Part shown: positions 122 through 46,148 of the stretch, one piece after another | How the letters are laid out: the number at the start of each line of letters is the position of its first letter | Numbering within the stretch: position 1 is the stretch's first letter | Assembly: GCA_009777815.1 (NCBI GenBank) | Contig: WRLB01000002.1 | Span: 1 to 50,703, forward strand | Length of the DNA: 50,703 bases | Direction of reading: 5' to 3' | From: Bacteroidota bacterium | GTDB taxonomy: Bacteria > Bacteroidota > Ignavibacteria > Kapaibacteriales > UBA2268 | Program-made: the position numbers and the translations under genes | The notes under the pieces: model-generated | Told to the model about the DNA's origin: nothing | The model's input: only the letters and a program-made list of their open reading frames with translations | Databases searched by the model: none

Positions 122-736
122 TTAATATATTCTTATTCCTTCTGTAAAATATTCAACATTTTCGGTGGTAACTTTGATTACAGCGATGCCCTTCTCTTTT
201 GCTTCTTTCTCTGCATCGGCATCAAAAAAAATGCCACCGACTCCCAAAATTATATTATAATTCTCATATTCTTTGAAAAGTTTTCTAAAGTTTTCTAATT
301 GTGTTGTTATAAGTTTTAATATATCTTTTTTCCGAACTTGGTATTTTGTTTCTATTATTCCAATGGTATCGCCATTCGTTAGAACTATATCATATTCGCC
401 TTCTAAATTAAGTAATTTTATTTTTCTTTTTTTATTCCTCTCTATATAGTAAAAATCTATTCCTGCGAATTTCATATCTCTTTCTAATGAGTTATATATC
501 ATTTGCTCTGCCATTTTGCCATTACCTTCGGCTATTCCACCGATATTGCGAGTAAGTTCTTTTATTTTTTTATTAGTTTCTGCAGAATTTTCTTTTATCA
601 TTCTGTCGGTTTCGGCGGATCTTTTATCTGCTGCTGCAGACATCTCTTTAATTTGCTCGCGAAGTTCATTTGCTTCTTTTTTTGATTCTGCGAACATTTG
701 CAATATGATTTCAGGTGTGTATTTTTCTTCTGCCAT
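122..736 (-). CDS. Coiled-coil plus PD-(D/E)xK nuclease-fold protein of unknown function (DUF3782-like)
   Basis: 204 aa ORF. The charged N-terminal helix carries 11-residue repeats (SAETDRMIKEN/SAETNKKIKEL). The C-terminal core has a D...ExK signature (EGEYDIVL...IGIIETK). A paralog lies at 27474-28169. Confidence 0.7.
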   Translation of the reverse strand: MAEEKYTPEIILQMFAESKKEANELREQIKEMSAAADKRSAETDRMIKENSAETNKKIKELTRNIGGIAEGNGKMAEQMIYNSLERDMKFAGIDFYYIERNKKRKIKLLNLEGEYDIVLTNGDTIGIIETKYQVRKKDILKLITTQLENFRKLFKEYENYNIILGVGGIFFDADAEKEAKEKGIAVIKVTTENVEYFTEGIRIY

Positions 737-2937: not shown

Positions 2938-3405
2938 ATGAGAAAAAGACGCGCTGAAAAAAGAAGAATTACGCCCGACCCAAAATTTAAAGATACGGTT
3001 GTAACAAAGTTCGTTAATTGCCTTATGCTCGATGGCAAAAAAAATACTGCTCGCAGAATAATGTATAATGCTATGGAACAAGTAGCAAATAAAACACAAC
3101 AGGACCCTTTAGAAGTGTTTAAACAAGCAATCGCAAATGTCGCACCACAAACGGAAGTCCGTTCAAGAAGAGTCGGCGGTGCCACCTACCAAGTACCTGT
3201 TGAAGTAAGAGCAGCAAGAAGACAAACACTTGCTATAAGATGGCTGAAAAATTATGCCACAGCAAGAAGAGATCATACAATGTCACAACGTCTTGCAGCT
3301 GAACTTATAGCCGCTTCCAAAGGTGAAGGAAATGCCGTTAAAAAACGCGATGACGTTCATAGAATGGCAGAAGCAAATAAAGCATTTGCACATTTTAGAT
3401 GGTAA
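2938..3405 (+). CDS. rpsG: 30S ribosomal protein S7
   Basis: The 155 aa product has full-length S7 hallmarks ([16 protein letters not shown]-like, [26 protein letters not shown]). Confidence 0.97.
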
Positions 3406-5803: not shown

Positions 5804-5884
5804 TGTCATTCCGAATTTACTTCGGGATGATAAGTATTTTAACAATATTTTGCATCTATTTCAACACGGGGGCTTGCCCCCGTG
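5804..5884. repeat. Intergenic palindromic elements (two hairpins)
   Basis: TGTCATTCCGAATTTACTTCGGGATGA and CACGGGGGCTTGCCCCCGTG. The second hairpin recurs at 17695, 33263 and, degenerate, at 10571. Confidence 0.75.
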
Positions 5885-5903
5885 CTAAAAGTATTTTTTA
5901 TAC

Positions 5904-11395: not shown

Positions 11396-11477
11396 TACTG
11401 CTTTAGCAGTAAACGGATACTGCTTTAGCAGTAAACGGATACTGCTTTAGCAGTAAACGGATACTGCTTTAGCAGGA
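11396..11477. repeat. Tandem array of a 22 bp hairpin unit (3.7 copies)
   Basis: The unit is TACTGCTTTAGCAGTAAACGGA, and each unit contains the inverted repeat TACTGCT/AGCAGTA. There are three perfect copies, one truncated copy and degenerate copies on both sides. Confidence 0.9.
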
Positions 11478-11488
11478 CAAATGTACTG

Positions 11489-14550: not shown

Positions 14551-14591
14551 AGGTTTTTTTTGTGAAAATAGTTTTATTTTAGAAATAAGGA

Positions 14592-14699
14592 TATGCTGAA
14601 GCAAGTTCAGCATAACAGAATAAAATAACGTGTCATTCCGAACTTGTTTCGGAATCCCCTAATACTATGCAAGGAAATGCCGAAGCAAGTGCGGTATGA
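14592..14699. repeat. Intergenic nested-palindrome elements (full copy plus an extra hairpin)
   Basis: TATGCTGAAGCAAGTTCAGCATA, then TGTCATTCCGAACTTGTTTCGGAATCCCCT...AAGGAAATGCCGAAGCAAGTGCGGTATGA. Confidence 0.8.
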
Positions 14700-14753
14700 A
14701 TTTTTAGACATTATCTTATTTTTTAAATAATATATTTTATTCCAAATAATAAC

Positions 14754-17357: not shown

Positions 17358-17431
17358 CACACCCGAAGGGAGTCGAACCCCTAACCTCTTGATCCGTAGT
17401 CAAGCACTCTATCCAATTGAGCCACGGGTGC
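17358..17431 (-). tRNA. tRNA-Arg (anticodon ACG)
   Basis: The reverse complement folds as a 74 nt cloverleaf: GCACCCG-TG-GCTC..GAGT-G-CTTGA-CTACGGA-TCAAG-AGGTT-AGGGG-TTCGACT-CCCTT-CGGGTGT-G. It has a G1-U72 wobble pair, and CCA is not encoded. Confidence 0.9.
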
Positions 17432-17599: not shown

Positions 17600-17606
17600 G
17601 GGATAA

Positions 17607-17686
17607 CCACCCCGTCATTTGTTGAAGCAAATGCCACCCCTCCACGGGAGTGGAACTGTTCCCCTCCCGTGGAGGGGCAGGGGTGG
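17607..17686 (+). repeat. Cloverleaf-like GC-rich element, copy 2
   Basis: Same orientation and architecture as 10485-10563, with the outer stem CCACCCC/GGGGTGG conserved. Confidence 0.8.
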
Positions 17687-17694
17687 TAAATTAA

Positions 17695-17795
17695 CACGGG
17701 GGCAAGCCCCCGTGCTGAATAAGTAGATTCCGAAACAAGTTCGGAATGACAAGTCATTTATCTGTCATTCCGAACTTATTTCAGCATCTACTAAT
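17695..17795. repeat. Intergenic palindromic elements
   Basis: CACGGGGGCAAGCCCCCGTG, GATTCCGAAACAAGTTCGGAATGACA and TGTCATTCCGAACTTATTTCAGCATC. Confidence 0.8.
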
Positions 17796-24631: not shown

Positions 24632-24671
24632 AATATCTTTATTTAATTAAATGTTAATATACCTCTTTATT

Positions 24672-24695
24672 AACACGGGGATTAATCCCCGTGTT
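24672..24695. repeat. Hairpin element AACACGGGGATTAATCCCCGTGTT
   Basis: An identical copy lies at 46125-46148 and a degenerate copy at 27388-27411. Confidence 0.8.
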
Positions 24696-24869: not shown

Positions 24870-26711
24870 TTATTTCCACCAATCTAACTCTAATTCTTCG
24901 AATACGCTGTTTCTTTGCTCGGTTGCGGAGATATAATTTGCATCATTTGGCGATAAATTGCTCTTTCCTTTATATTTTTCGAACAAGTCACATAATTTAT
25001 TAAAATCGGCGTGATGATAAGAAAAACGCTGTTCTGCATAGTCTTTCGCGGAATTAGTGTAAATTAAAAACTGCCAATCAGAAGATTGTAGAAGCAACAA
25101 TTCTTTTAATGCTTGTTTTAGAATTCGCTGTTCGAGTGGATTTAATTTTGCAATTATTTTGTTATGACAATCTTTTATTTTGTCATTCTGAACTTGTTTC
25201 AGAATCCCCTCGTTAGAATTAGGGGATGCCGAAATAAATTCGGCATGACAAGTGTTTTCTTTATCATTTTGCTCTTGATTTAATATCCCTTCAAAAATAT
25301 TATTTAGTCGCAATTCATCGTCATAAATATACTGCCAAGTCCAATTATTACCCGCATTAGACCAAACATCATGATTATTGTTTTCGCCCCAAGAACCCTC
25401 AGGCAAACTTATAACTTGTCGCGGCTTTTGCAAAAATATTTCTTCTGATGCTGTCATCATATTTATATAAGGCGAATTATGCAAGCCCTGACAAACTTTT
25501 CTAATAAATTCCGGACCTTCAAACCACCAATGCCCAAATAATTCCGTATCAAAAGGCAAACAAATAGTTGCTTCTTTGCCCGTTAAGTTCTTATAATAAT
25601 TTGCGGTATTTTCAATGTGATGAATAAAATGATTTGCCTGCTTATCCAATTTATCCCAAATCCAATCAGGATGATATAGCGTTTTATACATCATATCTGC
25701 CTTCGCATCGGTAACACGCCAATAGCGAATGCGAGACGGATAATGCGTTTTATGAAAGTCCAAATAATCAGGTTCAGCAGGATAGCCGATGCTTCCACTC
25801 CACACCTGCATTGATAATTTATGATGGCGAGTAAAACATATAGCCGTTCCATATTCAACCTTTTCGCTCGAACTAACTTCATAAATATTCAATGGCGATT
25901 TATCAAAATTCCAAGGTTCAGGTTTAAATTGCGGCGAATTAATATGAACAAACTTTTCTCTATTATTATCTAAAAACTTTCCAATCGGTTGGCTTCTTTT
26001 TAGCAAATCCTCATCAGTTACAAAATAAAATATCTCATTATCGGCTAATATTTGCTCAACACCTCTCCTTAAATGCTTATGATTAAAGGGATGCACAGGT
26101 ATCAAAGATTTCCACTCGTAAGAAGGACGATAAGCACATTCAGGCAACCAAGTTCCACGTGGATTTCTACCGAAGTGTTTTTTATAATTATTTACTGCTA
26201 ATTTCATTTGCAGATTAACGCTTTTATCGTATCCGAGCAAAGGGAAATATCCATGAGTCGCACCGCAAGTCATTATTTCTATTGCCCCTTTATTTTGTAG
26301 TTCGCGGAGTCCTTTTATTATTGATTTATCATATTTATATATGAAATCATTTTTTCTATTTTGATACCACTCCGCCCACCATTTAGCAAGATAAATGTGA
26401 TGAGCATCATAATTCCAATTCATAAAATTATGATGGTCTTCGAGTGCTGCTGCTGCTTTCTTTTCGCAATACGCAATGAAGATATTTTTAGTATCGGGAT
26501 GTTCCAACTGCTCACATAAAACAGGCGATATATCAAGCGTAATCTTTGGAATTATGCCATCGCCAATAAGTTCATTACACATATTAAGCAGCGGAATATA
26601 ACATTCGGCTATTGCTTCGGTCAGCCAATCTTCTCCGTGAGGCCAAGTTCCATGATGCAGAACAAATGGTAGATGAGTATGAAGTATAAGTATTAGATTT
26701 CCTGCGTGCAT
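24870..26711 (-). CDS. Glycoside hydrolase family 57 (alpha-glucan branching enzyme type)
   Basis: LILHTHLPFV..HG.WPHGEDWL, CGATHGYFPLL, WLPECAY, PFDTELFGHWW and C-terminal LLLQSSDWQFLI. Carries an in-frame repeat-element insertion (see 25181-25250). Confidence 0.9.
   Translation of the reverse strand: MHAGNLILILHTHLPFVLHHGTWPHGEDWLTEAIAECYIPLLNMCNELIGDGIIPKITLDISPVLCEQLEHPDTKNIFIAYCEKKAAAALEDHHNFMNWNYDAHHIYLAKWWAEWYQNRKNDFIYKYDKSIIKGLRELQNKGAIEIMTCGATHGYFPLLGYDKSVNLQMKLAVNNYKKHFGRNPRGTWLPECAYRPSYEWKSLIPVHPFNHKHLRRGVEQILADNEIFYFVTDEDLLKRSQPIGKFLDNNREKFVHINSPQFKPEPWNFDKSPLNIYEVSSSEKVEYGTAICFTRHHKLSMQVWSGSIGYPAEPDYLDFHKTHYPSRIRYWRVTDAKADMMYKTLYHPDWIWDKLDKQANHFIHHIENTANYYKNLTGKEATICLPFDTELFGHWWFEGPEFIRKVCQGLHNSPYINMMTASEEIFLQKPRQVISLPEGSWGENNNHDVWSNAGNNWTWQYIYDDELRLNNIFEGILNQEQNDKENTCHAEFISASPNSNEGILKQVQNDKIKDCHNKIIAKLNPLEQRILKQALKELLLLQSSDWQFLIYTNSAKDYAEQRFSYHHADFNKLCDLFEKYKGKSNLSPNDANYISATEQRNSVFEELELDWWK
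25181..25250. repeat. Nested-palindrome element located inside the GH57 reading frame
   Basis: TGTCATTCTGAACTTGTTTCAGAATCCCCTCGTTAGAATTAGGGGATGCCGAAATAAATTCGGCATGACA has the same architecture as the intergenic copies. It is translated as TCHAEFISASPNSNEGILKQVQND (about aa 487-510). Confidence 0.85.
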
Positions 26712-27365: not shown

Positions 27366-27387
27366 AAACAAATTCTTTAAAGATATT

Positions 27388-27472
27388 AACACGTGGATTC
27401 GTCCCCGTGCTAATGTGTATCATACGTGTTAAAATAATTGTCATACCGTGTCAAGCACGACATAACAGAATA
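27388..27472. repeat. Intergenic palindromic elements
   Basis: AACACGTGGATTCGTCCCCGTGCT and TGTCATACCGTGTCAAGCACGACATAACAGAATA. The latter is a direct repeat of 28231-28264. Confidence 0.75.
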
Positions 27473-27473
27473 T

Positions 27474-28169
27474 TTAATAAATCATTATTCCGCCCGTCCA
27501 ACATTCTACTTTATCATTGATAATTTGAATGACTCCGATGCCATATTCTTTTGCTTCTTTTATTGCATCTTTATCAAAACTTGCCCCACCAATACCTAAA
27601 ATTATCTTATATTTTGCATATTCGGAAAAAAGTTTTCTAAAATTATTTACTTGTTCTGTTGCAAGTTTAATAACATCTTGTATTCGGACTCTGTGCTTTG
27701 TTTCAATGAGGGAAATAGTATCACAATTAGTTAAAACAATATCAAATTCACCTTCTAAATTAAGTGATTTTATTTTTTTATGTTTATTTGTTTCTATGTA
27801 ATGGAATTCAATTCCTGCGAATTTCATATCTTTTTCTAATGAATTATATATCATTTGCTCTGCTGCAAGTCCATTAGAATCGGATATTCCACCGATATTA
27901 CGAGCAAGTTCTTTAATTTTTTTATCAGTTTCAGCAAACTTTTCTGAAAGAAATCTATCGGTTTCAGCAAACTTTTCTGAAAGAAATCTATCGGTTTCGG
28001 CAAACTTTTCTGAAAGAAATCTATCGGTTTCGGCGGATCTTTTATCAGCCGCAATAGACATTTCTTTTATTTGCTCGCGAAGTTCATTTGCTTCTTTTTT
28101 TGATTCTGCAAACATTTGCCATACTTTTTCAAAAGTATAAGTTATAATTTTATTTTCTTCTGACAGCAT
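27474..28169 (-). CDS. Coiled-coil plus PD-(D/E)xK nuclease-fold protein, paralog of 122-736, with an expanded 11-residue repeat
   Basis: 231 aa. It has the same C-terminal core (EGEFDIVL...ISLIETK). The N-terminal helix contains AETDRFLSEKF three times. Confidence 0.7.
   Translation of the reverse strand: MLSEENKIITYTFEKVWQMFAESKKEANELREQIKEMSIAADKRSAETDRFLSEKFAETDRFLSEKFAETDRFLSEKFAETDKKIKELARNIGGISDSNGLAAEQMIYNSLEKDMKFAGIEFHYIETNKHKKIKSLNLEGEFDIVLTNCDTISLIETKHRVRIQDVIKLATEQVNNFRKLFSEYAKYKIILGIGGASFDKDAIKEAKEYGIGVIQIINDKVECWTGGIMIY
27928..28026. repeat. In-frame 33 bp tandem repeat, 3 copies
   Basis: GTTTCAGCAAACTTTTCTGAAAGAAATCTATCG occurs three times with a single A/G difference in copy 3. 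Confidence 0.95.
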
Positions 28170-33221: not shown

Positions 33222-33316
33222 ATATGCCGAAACAAGTTTAGTATAACAGGCAGGAAAATTAGCACGGGGGCTTGCCCCCGTGTTAAAATAGATGCTGAAA
33301 TAAATTCAGCAGGACA
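33222..33316. repeat. Intergenic palindromic elements (three hairpins)
   Basis: ATATGCCGAAACAAGTTTAGTATAACA, CACGGGGGCTTGCCCCCGTG and GATGCTGAAATAAATTCAGCAGGACA. Confidence 0.8.
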
Positions 33317-36303: not shown

Positions 36304-37863
36304 ATGAAAAAAAATCTTGTTATAGCATTATGTCTTTTTATGATACCTTTTATATCTGTGTCGCAGATAGTAAAATATGGACACTCAACGTTTATAGATG
36401 CAGATTATTATTATGGCGGAATTAACACACATCATATAAATCTTTTGCTTGATATGTCATTAGTTAAAAGTGCTGAAATAGAAGTGTTAGATGCAATAAA
36501 AAAGTATTATGATGTCCCTACTATTGACTTAAATACTTTTCTTAAAGCCGATATTGACTTGCGAAATGGTAATTATCATATAGCATTGAAAGAATTAGAG
36601 ATATTTATTAAAGAAAGAAATAACTCTCCTTTTGTGCCGTCTGCGTGGTTATTTAGCGGCTATATAGAATTAGAAACAGGAAATTATAGCAGTGCCGAAA
36701 GATATTTTTTATTAGCAAAAAGTTCTGCCAACTACGATAAATCAGTTAGAACAGATAAGCAACATTATGATAACATAGAACATAGTGCTACTTATTGGTT
36801 AGCAATTTCGTTGTGTCAGCAGGGTAAATATTTAGATGCTATTCCATATTTTACGGAATCGCAAAAAAATTTTCCGAACTATATATATGCTGCTCAATCT
36901 TTGTATGCATTGGGTTCTATTGCGGAAATGGATAAGGATTATGAAAAAGCAATTAGTTATTATAACAGAATTGAATCCGAATATCCGTATTCTAATGTTA
37001 TTTTAGCATCACTAATAAGAAATGCAAATGATAGATTACTCTTAAGAAATCCACAATCTGCACTAATATATATACAAAGAGCAGAAAATATTTATAGAAA
37101 AATTATTATGAAAGATTCTGTAGGCATGCTATATGCTAAACAGGATTTTAATGAAAATTATTTAGAAAATATTGAATATTTGCAAGGCGAAGCATACAAT
37201 CAAGTAGCACAATATGACCAAGCAATAAAACACTTTAATGAAGTAGTTAATTCGTATCCGAAGTCCAATTTAATGGACTTTGTTAATATGGGTATCGGTT
37301 GGGCATATCTGAATAAAATGGAATATGAAAATGCTATTGATTATTTTCAAAAAGTAATAGATAGCCGTCTTGATTACTCGCCGACAGGTAATATATCTAA
37401 CGTTAAAGCAATCGCTTATCTTAATAAAATTTCTGCACTCAAAAAGTTAAAACGAATAGATGAAGCACAAGCAGAGTTATCTTTATTAGCAGTTAGACCT
37501 AATTTCCCACAATTAGCGTTTGTTCAGTTAGAATTAAGCCAAATATATTATGAAAATGCTGATTATGATTTAGCACGTAAAACATTAGAACGAGCAGAAC
37601 GAGAAGCAGATAATCCAAAAGTTTTAATACGAATAACATCTTTACTTGCTGCATCATATTTAGAATTGAAGCAGTATAGCAAAGCAGCAGAAACATACAA
37701 AAAAGTAATAGATATTGGTGAAAAAGCAGATGTATTACTTATTCCGAATAAAGATTGGTATATTGTTGATGCTTGCTTGAAACAAGGTATCGCACTTGTA
37801 TCTGCACAACGCAGTAACGAAGCAATAACACCACTACTAAAATATATATCACTTGTTAAATGA
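36304..37863 (+). CDS. Secreted tetratricopeptide-repeat protein
   Basis: Signal peptide MKKNLVIALCLFMIPFISVSQ. Multiple TPR-like units (Y..A...F......P.S......A...LG). Confidence 0.8.
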   Translation: MKKNLVIALCLFMIPFISVSQIVKYGHSTFIDADYYYGGINTHHINLLLDMSLVKSAEIEVLDAIKKYYDVPTIDLNTFLKADIDLRNGNYHIALKELEIFIKERNNSPFVPSAWLFSGYIELETGNYSSAERYFLLAKSSANYDKSVRTDKQHYDNIEHSATYWLAISLCQQGKYLDAIPYFTESQKNFPNYIYAAQSLYALGSIAEMDKDYEKAISYYNRIESEYPYSNVILASLIRNANDRLLLRNPQSALIYIQRAENIYRKIIMKDSVGMLYAKQDFNENYLENIEYLQGEAYNQVAQYDQAIKHFNEVVNSYPKSNLMDFVNMGIGWAYLNKMEYENAIDYFQKVIDSRLDYSPTGNISNVKAIAYLNKISALKKLKRIDEAQAELSLLAVRPNFPQLAFVQLELSQIYYENADYDLARKTLERAEREADNPKVLIRITSLLAASYLELKQYSKAAETYKKVIDIGEKADVLLIPNKDWYIVDACLKQGIALVSAQRSNEAITPLLKYISLVK

Positions 37864-37885
37864 TTGGAGAATTTTATTTTTATAT

Positions 37886-39922
37886 ATGAAAATACTGCAA
37901 AAACTTCCCACTAATGTTAATATAATACTGAAACAATATATACTATCGCTAATTATTTATTTTATATTTAGGGTTATCCTCTTTGCAACGGAAATAGATA
38001 GAATTGATAACGATGTTAGAATTATTGACATCTTACATAGTTTTTTATTGGGATTTAGGTTTGATTTAGTGGTATCAAGTTATATTTTAATACTTCCTTT
38101 CCTTCTGATGTCTATTAATGCTATAGCAGGAAAAGATTTCAAACCGATAAGAAAATTCGTATTTCTGTGGTGTTCTATTATTTCTGTGGCTACATTTTTG
38201 GTATCTGCGATTGATATTCCGTTTTTCAATCATTTTCTCGTTCGACTGACACATTCTTCTTTTGATGCACTCAAAGATGGAAACGCTGGATGGATATTGA
38301 GTATGATTAGCGAAGAAACAAGATATTGGATTTTCTTTGCGATTTTTCTTTTAATATCTGCCTTATATGTTCTTATTTCCAATAAAATAATCATTAAATC
38401 GCCTAATAAAGATGATAATAAGATAATAAAAACAAGAAACTATTTTGCTAATGTTTTACTAAATATTGCTGTCTTTTTACTTGGTTTTACGTTAATTTTC
38501 TTCGGAATTAGGGGAAGATTCACCGAAAAATCGCCAATTAGGATAGGAACAGCATATTTTTGCAATAATAATTTTTTGAACCAACTCGGTCTCAATCCTT
38601 CATTTACACTCCTCGCAAGTGCCTTAGAAAATAGTAAAAACAAGAATAAAAACAATAATTTTATGAACGATGATGAAGCAATAAAAAATATACAGCACAT
38701 CCTAAATTTAGACACAAATACCAATAATATTACTCGGAATAACGACCCAATAACTGATATTTACTCTAATCGTAATGTTATTCTAATTATTATGGAAGGA
38801 ATGAGTGCAGGCAAAATGAAAAGATACGGCAATAACAAAAATCTCACTCCATTCCTTGATAGTATAGCAAATATAGGGCTGAAGCCCGATAATAACGCTA
38901 CGATTACTTATACTTTTGATAATACTTTTTCTACCTCTGTTAAGACATTCGGAGGTGTATTTTGCACTTTATTTTCTTATCCTATTGCTCGTGGCAATAA
39001 TATTATGAAAATTGTGCCGATTTTGCAATTTGATGGCTTATCTACCATTTTGAAAAGCCAAAATTACTCTACTATTTACTTTACTACCCATGATGGACAA
39101 TTTGATGGAATTGCGGGCTTTTTATATAATAATAATTTTGAAAAAGTGGTCGAACTATCCGATTATCCGCTAAATGAAGCAAAAACTACTATGGGCGTTC
39201 CTGATGATTTTATGTTTAGATTTTCTCATCTTTATCTAAATGAATTACATCGGAAGGAGCGTCCTTTTTTTGCTACTTTTCTAACTGGGAGCGACCATCT
39301 TCCTTATTATATTCCTAAATATTTTAAGCCGAATAATAACGAAATTAAGTATCAAGCAACCGAATATGCTGACTGGTCACTCCGTCTATTTATGCAGGAA
39401 GCACAGAAGCAACAATGGTATAACAATACGCTTTTTATTTTTGCGGCAGACCACGGCACAGCCATTGATGCGACTTATCCGATGTCAATTACGCATTATC
39501 ATATTCCTTTTATTATATTTATTCCGAATGCAAAGGAGCAACAGAATGAGCAATTATCTGATTCTATCTTCACTAATATAGCATCTCAAGTGGATATAGC
39601 ACCAACTATTCTATCGCTGTTAGGAATAAATTATCAAAATAGTTCTTTAGGGCTTAATTTATTCAAAGAACACAGGAAATACGCAGTCATGGACGCTACT
39701 GACGATTATGCAGTTATTAGCAAAAATTATCTGATGATTGCAAAAAATAACGAAGAAAAGCAACTCTTTTACTACTTAAATAAAGATAAAAACAACTACG
39801 CAACCGCCAAGCAAAATGTGGTAGCAGAAATGGATTTATATGCTCGTTCTTACTTTCAGGTTCTTGATTATACATTAAGAAAAAAGAAAAATCAATTATA
39901 TAATCGGAAAACCGATTTATAA
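37886..39922 (+). CDS. LTA synthase/sulfatase-family membrane phosphotransferase
   Basis: Five N-terminal TM segments, then an alkaline-phosphatase-superfamily domain (NVILIIMEGMS, GSDHLPY, FAADHG). The start is set at MKILQKL. Confidence 0.85.
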   Translation: MKILQKLPTNVNIILKQYILSLIIYFIFRVILFATEIDRIDNDVRIIDILHSFLLGFRFDLVVSSYILILPFLLMSINAIAGKDFKPIRKFVFLWCSIISVATFLVSAIDIPFFNHFLVRLTHSSFDALKDGNAGWILSMISEETRYWIFFAIFLLISALYVLISNKIIIKSPNKDDNKIIKTRNYFANVLLNIAVFLLGFTLIFFGIRGRFTEKSPIRIGTAYFCNNNFLNQLGLNPSFTLLASALENSKNKNKNNNFMNDDEAIKNIQHILNLDTNTNNITRNNDPITDIYSNRNVILIIMEGMSAGKMKRYGNNKNLTPFLDSIANIGLKPDNNATITYTFDNTFSTSVKTFGGVFCTLFSYPIARGNNIMKIVPILQFDGLSTILKSQNYSTIYFTTHDGQFDGIAGFLYNNNFEKVVELSDYPLNEAKTTMGVPDDFMFRFSHLYLNELHRKERPFFATFLTGSDHLPYYIPKYFKPNNNEIKYQATEYADWSLRLFMQEAQKQQWYNNTLFIFAADHGTAIDATYPMSITHYHIPFIIFIPNAKEQQNEQLSDSIFTNIASQVDIAPTILSLLGINYQNSSLGLNLFKEHRKYAVMDATDDYAVISKNYLMIAKNNEEKQLFYYLNKDKNNYATAKQNVVAEMDLYARSYFQVLDYTLRKKKNQLYNRKTDL

Positions 39923-40109
39923 ATCGGAAAAGCAATTATATAATCGAAAAAGCAATTATATAATTGAAAAAGCAATTATATAATTGAAAAAGCAATTATA
40001 TAATTGGAAATTGCGTATTATTATTCAAAAATCAATTATATAAATCGGAAATTGCGTATTATAATGCAATTTTCAATTATATAATTGGTTTACCGATTAT
40101 ATAATTGGT
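39889..40109. repeat. Array of about 11 units phased every 20 bp, built on the perfect palindrome CAATTATATAATTG
   Basis: AAAAGCAATTATATAAT(T/C)G(A/G) occurs as four consecutive units at 39929-40008, with variant or degenerate units on both sides, including the 16 bp palindrome CCGATTTATAAATCGG that spans the stop codon of the preceding gene. Confidence 0.9.
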
Positions 40110-40249
40110 TTTTTGGTATTAAAATCGCTTAAACAACAGATAAATAGGGGAATTGGTAAAAAAATAGCAAAAACGTTACTAATTTTGTAATTTTTTCTTA
40201 TTTTTGTAATTACTTTTACTATATTCAGTATATTTATTGAACTAATTCT

Positions 40250-40385: not shown

Positions 40386-42419
40386 ATGAAAAAAGCAATT
40401 ATATTTATCTTATCGTTTTATTTAGTGGGAAATGCTTTCGCATATTCAAGAAATTATGATGTATTAAAGTATAACTTATATGTGGATTGGTCAGACATTT
40501 TGCAATCTAATAAAGGAGAAATAGAAAAAAGAAAATGGAATGGCAATATGAAAATAACTTTCGTTCCCAAAGTAGATAATCTAACAGAGATAGAATTAGA
40601 TGCAGTTGGATTAAAAATAGATGATATAAGTTTTAAGGTTGTTAATGAAGAGATGCTCGATGGTTCTCAAAATATCACTCTTTTTGATGATAAAATAAGG
40701 ATAGAAATGTCATTTTTAGATTACATTATAACCACAAAAGATACAATTGAGTTATCAATAGATTATGCGTATATTAATCCTTATAATAAGGGTTTTTCAT
40801 ATCGCAATTCGGCAGACACATTTCCGTCTGATTTTGTGCCTGATATAAATGCTCCAAGTGCAGGGACATTGAATGAGCCACAAGATGCAAGATATTGGAT
40901 GCCGTGTAATGATGTTCCAAGCGATAAAGCATTGTGGGACATTGTAGTGAGTGTTCCCGTTGGGATAAAGGCAGTGTCTAATGGTAGTTTGGATAGTTCT
41001 GTTATATATAATGATGTTGAGACGTTTTATTGGTCTTCTAAATGTCCGATGCCAACTTACCTTATGACTATTGCTGCTGCCGATTATGAATTGCGGATAG
41101 AAAGGATGCAGATTAATTCTACCGATATTGATTCTGTTGACGTATATTACTATACTTTTCCTGGCGATTGGGAAGGTGAAAATGGTTGTTCTGCTGAAAA
41201 AAACCTATCTACTACGCAAAAAGCAATGCAAATATTTAGTGATTTATTTGGCAACTATCCTTTTGAAAAATATGGTTATGCAACAGTGGATTACACACAT
41301 TTAGGTTTTAGAACATTAGGAATGGAGCATCAAACAATTACAACGAGTAATCGTTATTGGGTGAGGAATTTTATTCCTGTTCCAACTTGGACAGCATTTG
41401 CTCACGAGTTAGGACATCACTGGTTCGGCAATATGGTTACATGTAAGGAATGGACTGACCTTTGGTTCAACGAGGGCGGTGCAACTTGGACAGAAGCAAT
41501 ATATTCAGAACGAATAAATGGCTATATAGACACTGCTGCATATTTTAATTTTATGCAAAGCAGAAGGGTATCTTATATTGATTATTCAAAAAAAGATTCT
41601 AATTTTTACGTTCCTGTGGGCAAAATATATAATCCTGATTCGGCTCTGTTCCAATACTCTACTTTAACATATTCTAAATCATCTTGGATATTTCATAGTT
41701 TAAGAGTGTTATTAGGAGATGATATTTTTCCTTTGTGTAGAAAACTATTGGATGAATATAAGTTTGGCAACATTTCTATTTATGAATTTGCTGATTTTTT
41801 TGTAGAAAATGTTACCAATCCGCCGCATAATATAGATATGAAAAAGTTTATAGAGCAGTTTGTTATTTATGGCGGACATCCGAAATATATTATAAATACT
41901 AATGTTGCCAGTAATACTGCACCTTTTATCATCAATATGAATCTAATCCAAACGCAAGAAAAAACAGATAACGTTATAGATGATTTTTTGATGTATATTA
42001 AAGTAGATTTTTTTGATTCTGACGATAATTTTATTAAAAGCGAATATATTGTAAATGATAAACAAGAGCAAGATTATACTTTTATTTTAGATAAAGAACC
42101 GACTAAAATTATCTTTGATACAACACGCTCATTGTTAGAAATTATTGAAAATAATTTAACAAGCATAGAAAATTATACAGACAATGTTATAAAAATATTC
42201 CCTAATCCATCTAATAACAACGAAATAAATATCGCATCCGATTTAGGTATTAGCACCATTATTATTACTGATTTGCGTGGAAATACCATATTAAGTGATT
42301 TACAACCTCTAAATTATTTCAGCAATAATTATACATTCTTACTTCCAAATATTGAAACAGGCACCTATTTCATTATAATAAACAGCAAAAATATTTATAA
42401 GTTGATAGTTGCAGAATAG
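40386..42419 (+). CDS. M1-family zinc aminopeptidase with a T9SS C-terminal sorting domain
   Basis: HELGHHWFGN...WFNEGGATW (HExxH-x18-E). The C-terminus IKIFPNPSNNNEINI...GTYFIIINSKNIYKLIV is typical of a T9SS CTD. Confidence 0.9.
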   Translation: MKKAIIFILSFYLVGNAFAYSRNYDVLKYNLYVDWSDILQSNKGEIEKRKWNGNMKITFVPKVDNLTEIELDAVGLKIDDISFKVVNEEMLDGSQNITLFDDKIRIEMSFLDYIITTKDTIELSIDYAYINPYNKGFSYRNSADTFPSDFVPDINAPSAGTLNEPQDARYWMPCNDVPSDKALWDIVVSVPVGIKAVSNGSLDSSVIYNDVETFYWSSKCPMPTYLMTIAAADYELRIERMQINSTDIDSVDVYYYTFPGDWEGENGCSAEKNLSTTQKAMQIFSDLFGNYPFEKYGYATVDYTHLGFRTLGMEHQTITTSNRYWVRNFIPVPTWTAFAHELGHHWFGNMVTCKEWTDLWFNEGGATWTEAIYSERINGYIDTAAYFNFMQSRRVSYIDYSKKDSNFYVPVGKIYNPDSALFQYSTLTYSKSSWIFHSLRVLLGDDIFPLCRKLLDEYKFGNISIYEFADFFVENVTNPPHNIDMKKFIEQFVIYGGHPKYIINTNVASNTAPFIINMNLIQTQEKTDNVIDDFLMYIKVDFFDSDDNFIKSEYIVNDKQEQDYTFILDKEPTKIIFDTTRSLLEIIENNLTSIENYTDNVIKIFPNPSNNNEINIASDLGISTIIITDLRGNTILSDLQPLNYFSNNYTFLLPNIETGTYFIIINSKNIYKLIVAE

Positions 42420-42442: not shown

Positions 42443-45400
42443 CTACTTTGTAACTATAAACATTAAACTGACTATAGGATTAAACGGATTGTTAAATATA
42501 ATTAGATAAGAACCCGCTGAAATATCACCTAAATTAATTTCTTTTATTGTGTTGCCTTGTGCTAATTTAATTATATCTGTTATAATTATTTTGCCGTCAA
42601 TATCAAATATCTCTACATCTACAACAACGTCACCTGTTGCATTAAAATTAAGTTTTAGTGTGTTATTATGTATAGGATTTTGCTCTATTTCTACATCAAA
42701 CTCGCCTACAAATATAATACCACCACGCCAATCACTGCCGCAAAAATTAGACACATCCAAATATCCTTCCAACAACGTTAAATAATTACATTGTAACGTG
42801 TTTATTATGTCAAATTTATTGAAAAATACAGGCGTAGCAGTCGGAAGCGACATCAATGTCATTCCTTCCAAACGCAAAAATCTTTCACCTGTTTTGAAAT
42901 CATAATGACCAATTTTAGCATCAATTCCTGTAGCAAAACTAAAATTAAAATCAAGCGGATATTCTATATCATCACTTACTAAAAAGAGTTTTTTCGGAAC
43001 AAATAATTTATAATCCATTCCTATGTTAAAATGAACACTATCAAAAATCAATTCACGACTAATGCTTTCAATTGTAGCAGTTAAAGAAATTGTATCATCG
43101 GGAGTTTTATTCATAACACTATCCCAACGAATAGTAATAAAAACTTCTGTATTTTCAAACGTTGCAATCAAAATGGAATCGCTAACCATCATCACTTCCA
43201 GCGGATTAGAATTAGAAATAAAATTGTTATTTATGTCTACCCATTCTTTAAATATGTAGCAACTATTCGGCTCGGCAGTAATTATTACTACTTCATCGCA
43301 ATTTCTTATGCTAACTCCATCGGGCTGAACGCTACCATTACCATCGGTGCGAACATCCAAAATATATTTTATTTCCTCAAAATTTGCTATTAAAGTCCAG
43401 TTTCCGTCCATCAATATAGTATCAGTTAATTTGGTAGAAATAACGTCACCTGTTATGCTATCTGTCCAATTTATAAATCTATAACATTCGTTCGGAATTG
43501 CTATATATTCGGCATATTCGCCGCACTCAAATATGCCTGAACCTATTGTTGTGCCGCCCTCTTCGGGATTAGGTTTCGTTATTAAAGTAAGAGATTCTAT
43601 AACAAAATTAGCGATTAGTGTCCTGTTTCTGTTCATCAATATAGTGTCAGTTAGTTTTGTAGAAATAACGTTCCCTGTTATGCTATCTGTCCAATTTGTA
43701 AATATGTAACAGGCATTCGGAATTGCTTGGTAGATAGCATATTCATTACAATTAAATACGCCTGAACCTATTGCTGTTCCGCCTTCTTCGGGATTTGCTT
43801 TTGTTATTAATTCAAAACTATTTATTATGAAATTTGCAATTAAAGTGTAATCCCTATCCATAAATATAGTATCAATTAGTTTAGTAGAAATTTCTTGTCC
43901 CGTTGTGCCATCTGTCCAATTTATAAATGTATAGCAGTCGTTAGGAATCGCTTCGTATATTGCGTATTCGTTGCACTCAAATATGCCTGAACCTATTGCT
44001 GTTCCGCCTTCTTCGGGGTTTGCTTTTGTTATTAACTCAAAATTATTTTTTATAAAGTTTGCTATCAAAGTATAGTCCATATCCATCAATATAGTGTCAA
44101 TTAAATTTGCTGAAACCTCTTCACCTGTTATGCTGTCTGTCCAATTTATAAATGTATAGCAGTCGTTAGGTATTGCTTCGTATATTGCATATTCTCCTTC
44201 TTCGTATTCACCTTCACCGATTAATGTTGCTGAACCTTCGGGATTATCTTTTAATACTAAATTAAATATACGAGGAAACAAATCACAAGGTTTACTAATA
44301 TCTGCAATAGTAATCGGAATAGTTTTCTTTACATATCGCCAATCTGTAAATATTCCTGAATACATTACATCTTCGCCTAATTTTTCTAAAAAAACTATAT
44401 CATAAATGCTATCTTTTGGAACTATACTTACATTATCATAAGTTTTAGTCCAGACAACATTATTTTCTATATTTACAGAAAAACATTTGCGAATATTACA
44501 ATGCACATCGTATCCGTGTGACCTGTAATTAAAAGGATGTTGCGTTGTATCTTCATCGTCTAAATACGCAGGAGAACGGGCTATTTTTGCTATTGTATGA
44601 TTTTCTAAAAATTTTAATGTAGGATATAAATTATCGGCATATACCCAATCCTCATCTCCTAATTTATCTTGCAACTCCCAACCTATCATTTCTTTTGTTA
44701 GGTGTCCTTCTGCCATTCCTAATATATCTTCATTTCTAATTCCGCCATATATACACATTTGCTTGTCGTAGTGATTGTTCTGTAAACTAAGCATTGCACC
44801 ATCACCAAAACTACTTACAACAGCACCGATTCTATTATTACTAGGCGAATAAATAATTACTCCCGTATTTATACAATTTCTTATTTCACCATCAATTTCG
44901 GGATGTCCTAAAATACCTCCTATATATTCAGGAGATATATCTCTAGATATGTATGCATGAACCCCTACAATCAATCCACTATTAACACAATTAAATATAT
45001 CGGTATTACCTCTAAAAATGTCGTAAATTAGTTTTGATCTAAGATCTCTTGCTCCTCCACCTGCAATTCCACCACCATAATTAGTTGAAGTTATTGTTCC
45101 GATATTAATGGAATTATTAATTTCTACATTTTGATGAAAATGCCCAGTAATACCGCCAACACAATAAACACCTACAATATTACCACTATTGGCACAATTA
45201 GAAATAACTGCTTTAGGTCTTGTTCCTTCCAGATTTGCACAACCAATAATTCCGCCTATCGTCTCACTACCCTTAACATCACCATAATTAGTGTTATTTG
45301 TTATAAAAACAGAATGATAAGTACGAAAGTTTGATAAAGCACTTCCGCCAATAATTCCGCCAAGGAAAGATATAGTTCTTTCATTATTGCCTGAAATATA

Positions 45401-46048
45401 TCCATAATTAGTGCAGTTAGAAACTTCGGAGTTAGTTGTTTGTTTTTCATAACTATAAATCTCTATGCCACCAACAATTCCGCCAACTAAATATGCTCCC
45501 CTAATATTTGCATAATTAGTGCAATTAGAAATTCTACTTTCAAAAGCAGAACCAACAACTCCACCTACACGACCAGAACCATAAACATAACCATCTACAG
45601 TTAAATTACGAATATTTGCACCTGCAACAGAACCAAATAAACCAATATAGTCATCTCTAATCTTATTAATAGCCAAGTTAATTTTATTATAATTTCCGTT
45701 AAAATTTCCTTGAAAAGAAAGATAACTATGATACTCATAAAATGGGTATCCAGGTACATTATAATATACACCACGAGCAAACATAGCTTCCCCGATAATA
45801 GTGCTAATAGGTTCGTCAATATCATTCATAAGAATAAAATACTTGTCTCTGCTCCAGTTATAATCAGTAATAGAATCATTTAAGGGCGAATAAGCAACCA
45901 ACTCTGCTAAAATTTCTAAATGTTCTTTTTGTGTAATTTGGTATGGGTCGTATATTGTTCCTGCTCCGCCGCCGAATTGTGCATTTGCAATTTGCGGCAT
46001 AGCAAAAATCAAAGACATAACTAAAATTATTTTTATTTTCATTTTCAT
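42443..46048 (-). CDS. Large secreted T9SS cargo protein with GLUG-type repeats and five InlB-B-repeat-like domains
   Basis: Signal peptide, about 10 repeats around (V/I)GG(I/V)(V/I)G, 75 aa repeats (NPEEGGT..GSG.F...EYA.Y.AIPN.CY.F.NWTD...LIANF) and a C-terminal T9SS-like beta-sandwich. Confidence 0.85.
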   Translation of the reverse strand: MKMKIKIILVMSLIFAMPQIANAQFGGGAGTIYDPYQITQKEHLEILAELVAYSPLNDSITDYNWSRDKYFILMNDIDEPISTIIGEAMFARGVYYNVPGYPFYEYHSYLSFQGNFNGNYNKINLAINKIRDDYIGLFGSVAGANIRNLTVDGYVYGSGRVGGVVGSAFESRISNCTNYANIRGAYLVGGIVGGIEIYSYEKQTTNSEVSNCTNYGYISGNNERTISFLGGIIGGSALSNFRTYHSVFITNNTNYGDVKGSETIGGIIGCANLEGTRPKAVISNCANSGNIVGVYCVGGITGHFHQNVEINNSINIGTITSTNYGGGIAGGGARDLRSKLIYDIFRGNTDIFNCVNSGLIVGVHAYISRDISPEYIGGILGHPEIDGEIRNCINTGVIIYSPSNNRIGAVVSSFGDGAMLSLQNNHYDKQMCIYGGIRNEDILGMAEGHLTKEMIGWELQDKLGDEDWVYADNLYPTLKFLENHTIAKIARSPAYLDDEDTTQHPFNYRSHGYDVHCNIRKCFSVNIENNVVWTKTYDNVSIVPKDSIYDIVFLEKLGEDVMYSGIFTDWRYVKKTIPITIADISKPCDLFPRIFNLVLKDNPEGSATLIGEGEYEEGEYAIYEAIPNDCYTFINWTDSITGEEVSANLIDTILMDMDYTLIANFIKNNFELITKANPEEGGTAIGSGIFECNEYAIYEAIPNDCYTFINWTDGTTGQEISTKLIDTIFMDRDYTLIANFIINSFELITKANPEEGGTAIGSGVFNCNEYAIYQAIPNACYIFTNWTDSITGNVISTKLTDTILMNRNRTLIANFVIESLTLITKPNPEEGGTTIGSGIFECGEYAEYIAIPNECYRFINWTDSITGDVISTKLTDTILMDGNWTLIANFEEIKYILDVRTDGNGSVQPDGVSIRNCDEVVIITAEPNSCYIFKEWVDINNNFISNSNPLEVMMVSDSILIATFENTEVFITIRWDSVMNKTPDDTISLTATIESISRELIFDSVHFNIGMDYKLFVPKKLFLVSDDIEYPLDFNFSFATGIDAKIGHYDFKTGERFLRLEGMTLMSLPTATPVFFNKFDIINTLQCNYLTLLEGYLDVSNFCGSDWRGGIIFVGEFDVEIEQNPIHNNTLKLNFNATGDVVVDVEIFDIDGKIIITDIIKLAQGNTIKEINLGDISAGSYLIIFNNPFNPIVSLMFIVTK
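43151..44266. repeat. Intragenic tandem repeats of about 225 bp (5 copies, middle ones highly similar)
   Basis: LITKANPEEGGTAIGSG recurs at aa 672 and 747, with the variant LITKPNPEEGGTTIGSG at aa 822. Long stretches are identical at the DNA level. Confidence 0.85.
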
Positions 46049-46124
46049 AACGATTAAAATATATTTTTATACAAAATAACAATAAAAAATGAAATATACT
46101 TATGTATCTTATACAGCAAGTATT

Positions 46125-46148
46125 AACACGGGGATTAATCCCCGTGTT
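46125..46148. repeat. Hairpin element AACACGGGGATTAATCCCCGTGTT
   Basis: Identical to 24672-24695. Confidence 0.8.

Follow-up and report, generated by a model that had tools for sequence, protein, structure and literature searches.

How does a hairpin repeat that otherwise keeps to the gaps between genes come to lie inside the coding sequence of a conserved enzyme, and what becomes of that enzyme? The question is raised by one locus in a 50,703-nt stretch of DNA (50.7 kb, 31.5 % GC; hereafter the window) of a Bacteroidota bacterium (GTDB lineage Ignavibacteria; Kapaibacteriales), contig WRLB01000002.1 of assembly GCA_009777815.1. There, the gene for a GH57-type 1,4-alpha-glucan branching enzyme contains a nested palindrome built from short hairpin units that are assigned below to the repetitive extragenic palindromes (REPs). 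The gene is intact, it carries an insertion that is missing from the corresponding sites of its relatives, and the insertion is made of REPs from a family that is abundant in this genome; translation, activity and the way in which the repeat moved are inferred. Very probably, the REP cluster inserted into the linker between two domains of the enzyme, was kept in frame, and left a gene that is likely still active. The features of the locus are collected in Table 1.

The extent of the insertion follows from comparison with homologues. The open reading frame (ORF) runs across the repeat without a stop and encodes ...TCHAEFISASPNSNEGILKQVQND... there. The best 120 listed homologues measure 465-601 aa versus 613 aa for the window protein, and in an alignment of 71 sequences 63 of the 70 homologues have 32 residues at the insertion region where the window protein has 74. 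DNA alignments with the five closest relatives (loci L005, L006, L127, L128 and L001; ~76-89 % identity) show a single clean gap of 126 nt, placed in the relatives' DNA between ...AATATTTTTGAA and AACAAAATAATTGCAAAA... An earlier note on this DNA, made from the sequence alone, had put the insertion at about 70 bp or some 24 residues; the homologue and relative alignments enlarge it to 126 nt, that is, 42 codons (475-516). They also bear out the note's expectation that the segment would prove to be an insertion, as it is absent from the examined homologues and from the DNA of the five closest relatives. Given these empty sites, the insertion event is younger than the split from those relatives. 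Length at this spot is variable in other members of the family, since homologues P0080 and P0089 (+10 aa each) and P0101 (+15 aa) carry unrelated inserts there.

The core of the insertion, positions 25181-25250, reads TGTC-ATTCTGAA-CTTGT-TTCAGAAT-CCCCT-CGTTAGAATT-AGGGG-ATGCCGAA-ATAAA-TTCGGCAT-GACA on the plus strand. It consists of two perfect, mutually inverted hairpins, each with an 8-bp stem and a 5-nt loop, with the TGTC/GACA tags as outer ends and an inner CCCCT/AGGGG stem that joins both hairpins. The 82 nt of gene-strand RNA around it fold into a three-way nested palindrome of -30.2 kcal/mol (z = -6.7), and none of 200 shuffles folded as well. The complete nested-palindrome copy of about 70 bp that had been described within the 613-aa ORF is therefore confirmed in its anatomy. 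A search of Rfam over the whole window at the gathering threshold returned tRNAs only and no family for the hairpin element, and a search over 25100-25350 at E up to 10 returned sub-threshold generic-hairpin noise (microRNA precursors, a CRISPR repeat) and no family.

The same unit is abundant in the window. A profile and a position weight matrix (PWM) of the 32-nt unit, the PWM being built without the two GH57 copies, together found about 27 units, and the two in the GH57 gene rank 1st (unit B, 46.5 bits, the best-scoring unit of the window) and 7th (unit C, 43.0 bits) of ~101,000 positions. Each GH57 arm matches other window sites, for which the expectation in shuffled sequence is 0, and a repeat finder groups the arms of the GH57 element with other copies in the window. 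All units besides the GH57 cluster are intergenic, as the earlier note had held, and they occupy 16 gaps, 11 of them between unidirectional genes, 1 convergent and 4 divergent. Units at 821 and 35326 were considered as further intragenic candidates and rejected, as they fall inside ORFs only through upstream TTG starts, the true ATGs being at 920 and 35289.

Alignment of 24 units supports the hairpin as a conserved structure. Stem positions pair in 86.5 % of cells versus 24-43 % when the partner is slid, and compensatory changes are present (CG/UA, 10/8; GC/UA, 7/4). The stem is 8 bp long, with A-U as its first pair and U-A as its second in 23 of the 24 units each; the loop is 5 nt (YTTRT); and the conserved tail, C(C/T)CCT, pairs with the partner's AGGGG in dimers. 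The tag is TGTC in 11 units, including both GH57 units, and CGTC in one, and most others are one position off (TGTT, AGTC, CGTT). Eight pairs are head-to-head (HH) dimers with the tags outside (3449/3480, 14631/14670, 17529/17568, 21704/21739, 25181/25219, 29140/29179, 32494/32519 and 35326/35364). Three tags-inside, or tail-to-tail (TT), junctions with units 11-13 nt apart and one head-to-tail (HT)-like pair complete the set. Stem mismatches in the 24 units are unevenly distributed between the strands: 18 are A.C or C.A and 7 are G.T on the tag strand, and the GACA strand pairs in 92 % of cells versus 86.5 %. This may reflect the strand that forms the hairpin or a mutation bias.

Read along the gene strand, the insertion consists of a decayed third unit (GGGATATTAAATCAAGAGCAAAATGATA), an 11-nt spacer, unit B (TGTCATGCCGAATTTATTTCGGCATCCCCT, translated as CHAEFISASP), a 10-nt spacer, unit C (AGGGGATTCTGAAACAAGTTCAGAATGACA, translated as EGILKQVQND), an 11-nt spacer and a lone TGTCAT. 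The arrangement of a unit followed by N11 and TGTCAT thus occurs twice, as two 48-nt modules 81 nt apart (EGILNQEQNDKENTCH and EGILKQVQNDKIKDCH) that are identical at 34 of 48 bases; among 2 million random pairs of 48-mers from the window, 4 reach 33 identities. The codons that had been described as duplicated on the two flanks are a real duplication, but they are not host codons: the upstream copy is the decayed unit, and an orphan tag accounts for the downstream TGTCAT. Because homologues lack both copies, the pair belongs to the insert and represents neither host codons nor a target-site duplication. The decayed unit shares its last 4 nt (25290-25293) with the native GAA codon and flank. 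It scores 9.4 bits (rank 29 of ~101,000 positions), its spacing and orientation are those expected for a tags-inside partner, and it was not found in homologues. The junction between the tag of unit B and the decayed unit (Table 1) recurs as ATGACA-N11-TGTCAT at 17746-17768 and 25164-25186. A fourth unit beyond the orphan TGTCAT was sought and rejected: the score of AACAAAATAATTGCAAAA is only -3.2 bits (rank 142), and in homologues its counterpart is the native codons for DNDIAK.

Two relatives with an empty site carry the repeat close by. The GH57 gene of L127 is 85 % identical to that of the window and uninterrupted, and a TT pair lies ~75 nt 3' of it (3254-3321) in which one unit is identical to unit C at 30 of 31 positions. 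In L006, a unit seen by eye at 678-706, just 5' of the uninterrupted GH57 gene, consists of one hairpin that has a tag at either end (TGTCATATCGAAATAAAATTCGGTATGACA). A profile search at E < 0.01 of six gene-centred relative loci returned no significant unit. Protein-pattern scans of genome and metagenome contigs, including one for the insert-specific KIKDCHNK, returned insertion-free relatives only, and a database search with the 42-aa insert peptide returned no candidate.

Di Nocera and coworkers described a superfamily of CGTC-tagged REPs (Di Nocera, De Gregorio & Rocco 2013, BMC Genomics 14:522, PMC3733652). In its members, the tag is CGTC with TGTC and CCTC as variants, the stem has 8-9 bp and begins with A-T and T-A pairs, the loop has 4 nt in CGTC-1 and 5 nt in CGTC-2 to -4, and a short unpaired tail is mostly CCA. 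HH dimers predominate, TT pairs are rare and HT pairs negligible; no transposase is associated; and most copies are intergenic, mainly between unidirectional or convergent genes. The hosts given are Proteobacteria, Chlorobi, Bacteroidetes, Spirochaetes and Thermotogae, among them Sulfurovum NBC37-1, Kosmotoga olearia, Gramella forsetii, Chlorobaculum parvum and Chlorobium chlorochromatii, the last with an intragenic copy. Copies in frame inside genes occur as singles, as dimers (20-30 aa) and as clusters (43-82 aa). The superfamily also takes in RPE-6 (CGTC-1) and RPE-4 (CGTC-4), two Rickettsia palindromic elements (RPEs) of R. conorii, and the dRS3 repeat of Neisseria (CGTC-1).

By its sequence features, namely tag, stem, loop, dimers and distribution, the GH57 hairpin is assigned to this CGTC/TGTC-tagged superfamily. 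It is like the described members in its HH dimers, its intergenic preference with occasional in-frame copies, and its occurrence in the range of Bacteroidetes and Chlorobi hosts. An 8-bp stem with a 5-nt loop makes it a putative CGTC-2 type; the grounds for this typing are the lengths of stem and loop stated in the text of PMC3733652 and one peptide, RHSELVSGS of a Sulfurovum CGTC-2 element, which back-translates to essentially the hairpin of the GH57 window (window peptides, CHSELVSES and CHAEFISAS). It differs from the REPs of 2013 in that the tag is mostly TGTC and the Ignavibacteria-like host lies outside the lineages covered in that year. The GH57 target gene and the 42-aa architecture of a dimer plus a decayed unit are new instances. 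The earlier note had stressed the occurrence in the FCB (Fibrobacteres-Chlorobi-Bacteroidetes) group; this is not new, in view of the copies already described from G. forsetii, C. parvum and C. chlorochromatii (PMC3733652). The kind of event, an in-frame REP insertion, is already described, and what is new is the host lineage, the target gene and the documented empty site.

The note's comparison with RPEs is better founded, since the anatomy that it describes is the defining anatomy of the superfamily to which RPE-6 and RPE-4 are assigned in PMC3733652. RPEs are found in frame in housekeeping genes of unrelated kinds, where the protein fold can accommodate them (Ogata et al. 2000/2002, via PMC10969869 and PMC3733652), and the GH57 insert, to judge from its sequence, likewise keeps the frame of an apparently functional gene, at a place where the structure seems to tolerate it. 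The peptides of RPE-6 and RPE-4, CHSRESGNP and DSRFRGND, as given there, represent the same frames as CHAEFISASP and ILKQVQND of the window. However, the classical RPE-1 is longer (~100-150 bp), the host of the window is neither Rickettsia nor another alphaproteobacterium, and with a single intragenic cluster among the ~27 window units the element shows no particular tendency to land in genes. The GH57 insert works like an RPE and should not be filed as one, the link between them being only the literature assignment of RPE-6 and RPE-4.

Two other systems invite comparison. GTAG-tagged REP doublets mobilised as REPINs with the tyrosine transposase RAYT (TnpA-REP) resemble the present element as inverted doublets of short hairpins with high copy number, intergenic preference and a long fold. 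Unlike them, the window element has a TGTC/CGTC rather than a GTAG tag, the window has no Y1 transposase, and none is known for CGTC REPs in the source available. The dRS3 repeats of Neisseria have a GC-rich stem, form large clustered arrays, and are integration sites for phages or insertion sequences. They share with the window unit a (C/T)GTCAT tag and, after it, a hairpin beginning with AT, and they differ from it in being of the CGTC-1 type with a 4-nt loop.

The protein that receives the insert is recognisable as a GH57 branching enzyme. It matches GH57 branching enzymes in the PDB (Thermococcus, Pyrococcus, Thermus) at E = 1e-96 to 1e-88, and its Pfam domains are Glyco_hydro_57 (residues 7-437) and BE_C (523-612), with the insertion between them. 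The location between the catalytic barrel and the C-terminal helical domain, which had been proposed with the catalytic motifs recognised as intact, is therefore correct. The motifs are WLPECAY (188; E191) and PFDTELFGHWW (386; D388), and the residues of TK1436 (3n8t) aligned to E191 and D388 are E183 and D354; E191 is presumably the nucleophile Glu and D388 the acid/base Asp of GH57. An AlphaFold model (AF2; predicted TM-score, pTM, 0.87) superimposes on 3p0b, 5wu7 and 3n8t with TMt 0.86-0.91. In it the helices that flank the insert are extended into a protrusion, and the residues at its tip, 486-500, have a predicted local distance difference test (pLDDT) score below 50. The insert is thus predicted as a low-confidence protrusion at a site tolerant of extra length, and the unrelated 10-15-residue inserts of three homologues agree with the earlier suggestion of a permissive linker.

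The reading frame is preserved to a degree that bears on the fate of the gene. Of the three gene-strand frames across the insert a single one is open, and this is the frame in use; the uninterrupted reading described in the earlier note is confirmed. A run of 42 codons without a stop in sequence of 31.5 % GC is expected by chance in ~3 % of cases, as estimated from base composition. The spacer of intergenic dimers is 11 nt (type AATTTTATGCA / CGCATAATACA), and the GH57 dimer has 10 nt instead. Had this dimer the intergenic spacer length, the frame through unit C would run into a TGA in the tag. Near-invariant columns of the family are altered at 1 of 183 positions in the window protein, which equals the family median.

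These data also bear on the possibility that the insertion inactivated the enzyme, or that the gene is becoming a pseudogene whose open frame reflects mere recency. The dimer is undecayed (PWM ranks 1 and 7), so that the event may be too recent for decay to be visible, and a 70-nt mRNA structure of -30 kcal/mol might impede translation. Inactivation is nevertheless unlikely: one frame in three is open and it is the one used, against a chance of ~3 % for 42 stop-free codons; decay of the third unit has left the frame untouched, which implies time under selection; and there is no excess of change at conserved columns, at a site where other homologues tolerate inserts. No sign of a pseudogene, which the earlier note had named as a reason to abandon its view, is apparent from the motifs or the conserved columns. 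The gene is most likely still translated into an active enzyme with a 42-residue surface protrusion.

Translation could also proceed without decoding the segment, through ribosomal bypassing or excision at the RNA level. Bypassing is exemplified by T4 gene 60 and by the mitochondrial 'byp' elements. A hairpin-rich insert between direct repeats (GAR GGG AT..., 81 nt apart) would in principle offer take-off and landing sites. Such skipping is extremely unlikely here, as no stop follows any putative take-off site and the fully open frame makes a bypass unnecessary; furthermore, inteins and group I or II introns are longer than this segment, which matches no Rfam RNA family.

The perfect hairpins, the strong structure within a coding region and the position exactly at a domain boundary suggest another possibility, that the segment has been kept for a function of its own, either in the mRNA, where it would serve for processing or pausing between the domains, or as a functional surface appendage. 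A unit in a Treponema glutamate synthase gene (GltB) likewise lies between domains. Exaptation of this kind is improbable. No relative shares the insert, and so no conservation argues for function; the hairpins are of the same type as the ~26 intergenic copies; and the insert region is modelled at low confidence. Moreover, Di Nocera et al. took the variety of unrelated proteins that receive such insertions as an argument against functional constraint (PMC3733652).

Insertion of a REP cluster that was then kept in frame remains the preferred reading. A small CGTC/TGTC-tagged cluster, made up of an intact head-to-head REPIN-like dimer with its tags outside, a decayed unit joined to it tag to tag and an orphan tag, would have inserted in the linker between the GH57 catalytic domain and the C-terminal helical domain. 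This would have occurred in the window genome's own lineage, after the split from relatives of 84-89 % identity. The allele may persist by virtue of a length (126 nt) that is a multiple of three, a used frame that is the sole stop-free one, and a site that tolerates extra length; it would then be a survivor of selection on frame and position. The presence of a pristine dimer beside a decayed unit admits three histories. Two successive in-frame events may have occurred, of 45 nt (unit plus tag) and then of 81 nt, beside or into the older copy. Alternatively, an 81-nt tandem duplication may have been followed by decay of one copy, or the three units may have arrived together as a trimer whose members already differed, as they do at 14586-14701.

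Several observations weigh against the insertion reading. A target-site duplication was sought at both borders of the insertion and none was found, and no other hallmark of transposition is visible there. A transposase domain above threshold was found in 0 of the 35 scanned window ORFs, with no Y1 or RAYT among them, 50 kb being a small sample of the genome; a window free of transposases agrees with PMC3733652 but is weak evidence by itself, and it gives no clue to the insertion mechanism. The third unit is only moderately supported by its PWM score taken alone, and an apparently unrelated position in coding sequence (3190) scores 10.5 bits, above the 9.4 bits of the decayed unit. The tail of the window units (C(C/T)CCT, that is, CCCCT or CTCCT) is not the CCA consensus reported for CGTC REPs in PMC3733652. 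Translation and activity of the enzyme are predicted from its sequence. Finally, the exact GH57 protein of the window is absent from other public assemblies, and with no relative carrying the insertion the allele rests on one assembly.

The single assembly, together with the abundance of the repeat (~27 units per 50 kb), is what would favour an artefact, in which a mis-join during metagenome assembly spliced a repeat into the GH57 gene. A mis-join is very improbable, however, as both junctions run exactly into sequence collinear with five orthologues, the insert amounts to exactly 42 codons in the only open frame, and its decayed unit and spacers are unique rather than copies of other window loci.

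The hairpin is not confined to this lineage. An exact 26-nt pattern of the unit, TGTCATNCNGAAYTTRTTTCNGNATC, is present in at least 120 genome stretches (L007-L126) with HH and TT pairing alike, and a handful of chance matches is expected in the whole collection, as estimated from the information content of the pattern. Among the matches listed, the hosts represent at least a dozen phyla and include many CPR (candidate phyla radiation)/Patescibacteria, Melainabacteria, Treponema, Bacteroidota, Ignavibacteriota, Nitrospirota, Proteobacteria and 1 metagenome-assembled genome of Nanoarchaeota. This listed range is far wider than the five phyla given for CGTC REPs in 2013 (PMC3733652). At least 6 of the 163 units in the at least 120 listed loci form in-frame parts of genes and have a Pfam domain to either side of them (Table 1), and the frames in these six genes are as in GH57 (CH.E..S.S /.LKQVQ.D / VILNLFQ). 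It is tentatively proposed, as a possible but rather doubtful interpretation, that the TGTC-tagged hairpin with an 8-bp stem and a 5-nt loop is one nearly invariant element across at least a dozen phyla that has repeatedly become a peptide insert in core enzymes.

Table 1. Features of the GH57 locus (window coordinates) and in-frame units in genes of other genomes (coordinates of the respective loci)
Feature	Position	Strand	Description
GH57-type 1,4-alpha-glucan branching enzyme gene, intact	24870..26711	-	613 aa; only long ORF at the site
Whole insertion	25164..25289	-	126 nt, codons 475-516, GILNQEQNDKENTCHAEFISASPNSNEGILKQVQNDKIKDCH; absent from examined homologues and from the DNA of the 5 closest relatives
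11-nt spacer and orphan TGTCAT tag	25164..25180	-	promoter-distal end of insertion; reads KIKDCH
REP unit C	25181..25210	+	tag TGTC 25181-25184; stem ATTCTGAA/TTCAGAAT, 8 bp; loop CTTGT; tail CCCCT
HH dimer spacer	25211..25220	no strand	10 nt, CGTTAGAATT on +
REP unit B	25221..25250	-	tag TGTC (gene strand); stem ATGCCGAA/TTCGGCAT; loop TTTAT; tail CCCCT
Spacer, unit B tag to decayed unit	25251..25261	no strand	11 nt; tags-inside junction ATGATA-N11-TGTCAT (gene strand)
Decayed third REP unit	25262..25293	+	TATCATTTTGCTCTTGATTTAATATCCCTTCA; hairpin lost; reads (E)GILNQEQND
TsaD, Daviesbacteria	L114:1688-3061	-	in-frame unit; dimer CHPEFISGSTDKMLKQVQHDNKE
LigA (NAD-dependent DNA ligase), Nomurabacteria	L025:1781-3856	-	in-frame unit
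GltB (glutamate synthase large subunit), Treponema	L045:4236-8000	-	in-frame unit between two domains
Asn-synthase/F420-ligase-like (AsnB-like) protein	L054:4345-7146	-	in-frame unit
FemAB, Moraniibacteriota	L092:5205-6383	+	in-frame unit; dimer
Dus	L120:936-2120	+	in-frame unit

The window contains other repeats, some of which lie close to the TGTC units. A second, GC-rich hairpin family, (A/T)ACACGGGG-N4-6-CCCCGTG(C/T)T, is present at 5859-5886, 17689-17716, 24668-24695, 27384-27411, 33257-33284 and 46121-46148, and the copies at 24668 and 46121 are identical at 28 of 28 positions. These hairpins often adjoin TGTC units (17689 beside 17720; 33257 between 33217 and 33285) and could be terminators or a second REP family. 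The largest REP array, beside the tRNA at 17358-17431, includes a long GC-rich palindrome at 17600-17690 (CCACCCCTCCACGGGAG ... CTCCCGTGGAGGGGCAGGGGTGG) with a composition very unlike its 31.5 % GC surroundings. A dense array of a 20-nt motif, CAATTATATAATCGGAAAAG, lies at 39873-40148 between a sulfatase gene (37853-39922) and a peptidase M1 gene (40386-42419); it has ~7 direct and then inverted copies, with arms of up to 89 nt that are 74-79 % complementary, and its sequence has the appearance of a protein-binding array. At 11396-11483, in the gap between a radical-SAM gene and a cheB-like gene, a 22-nt unit that is itself a small palindrome, TACTGCTTTAGCAGTAAACGGA, is repeated four times in tandem. 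Among the genes themselves, 122-736(-) and 27474-28169(-) are paralogous, with 72-83 % nucleotide identity over parts and no Pfam match in either, and the latter has an internal 33-nt triplicated repeat (SEKFAETDRFL x3). In addition, four 225-nt tandem repeats at 43379-44265 encode repeated Flg_new_2 (InlB B-repeat-like) domains of a 1201-aa protein (42443-46048).

For the annotation of this genome, the odd 42-residue segment of the branching enzyme is explained, and the gene should not be called disrupted. That a nearly unchanged hairpin is present in many phyla, and in frame in several essential genes, bears on how CGTC-type REPs spread. If these hairpins are one shared element, this would imply a broadly conserved recognition or mobilisation machinery, or frequent transfer between phyla. 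In that event, the GH57 allele could be used as a 'fresh insertion' for the study of mechanism, with its pristine units, empty sites in relatives, no target duplication and an older decayed neighbour. The locus provides a clean, datable case of a REP cluster turned into protein, and illustrates how conserved enzymes of hosts other than Rickettsia gain loops from short hairpin repeats.

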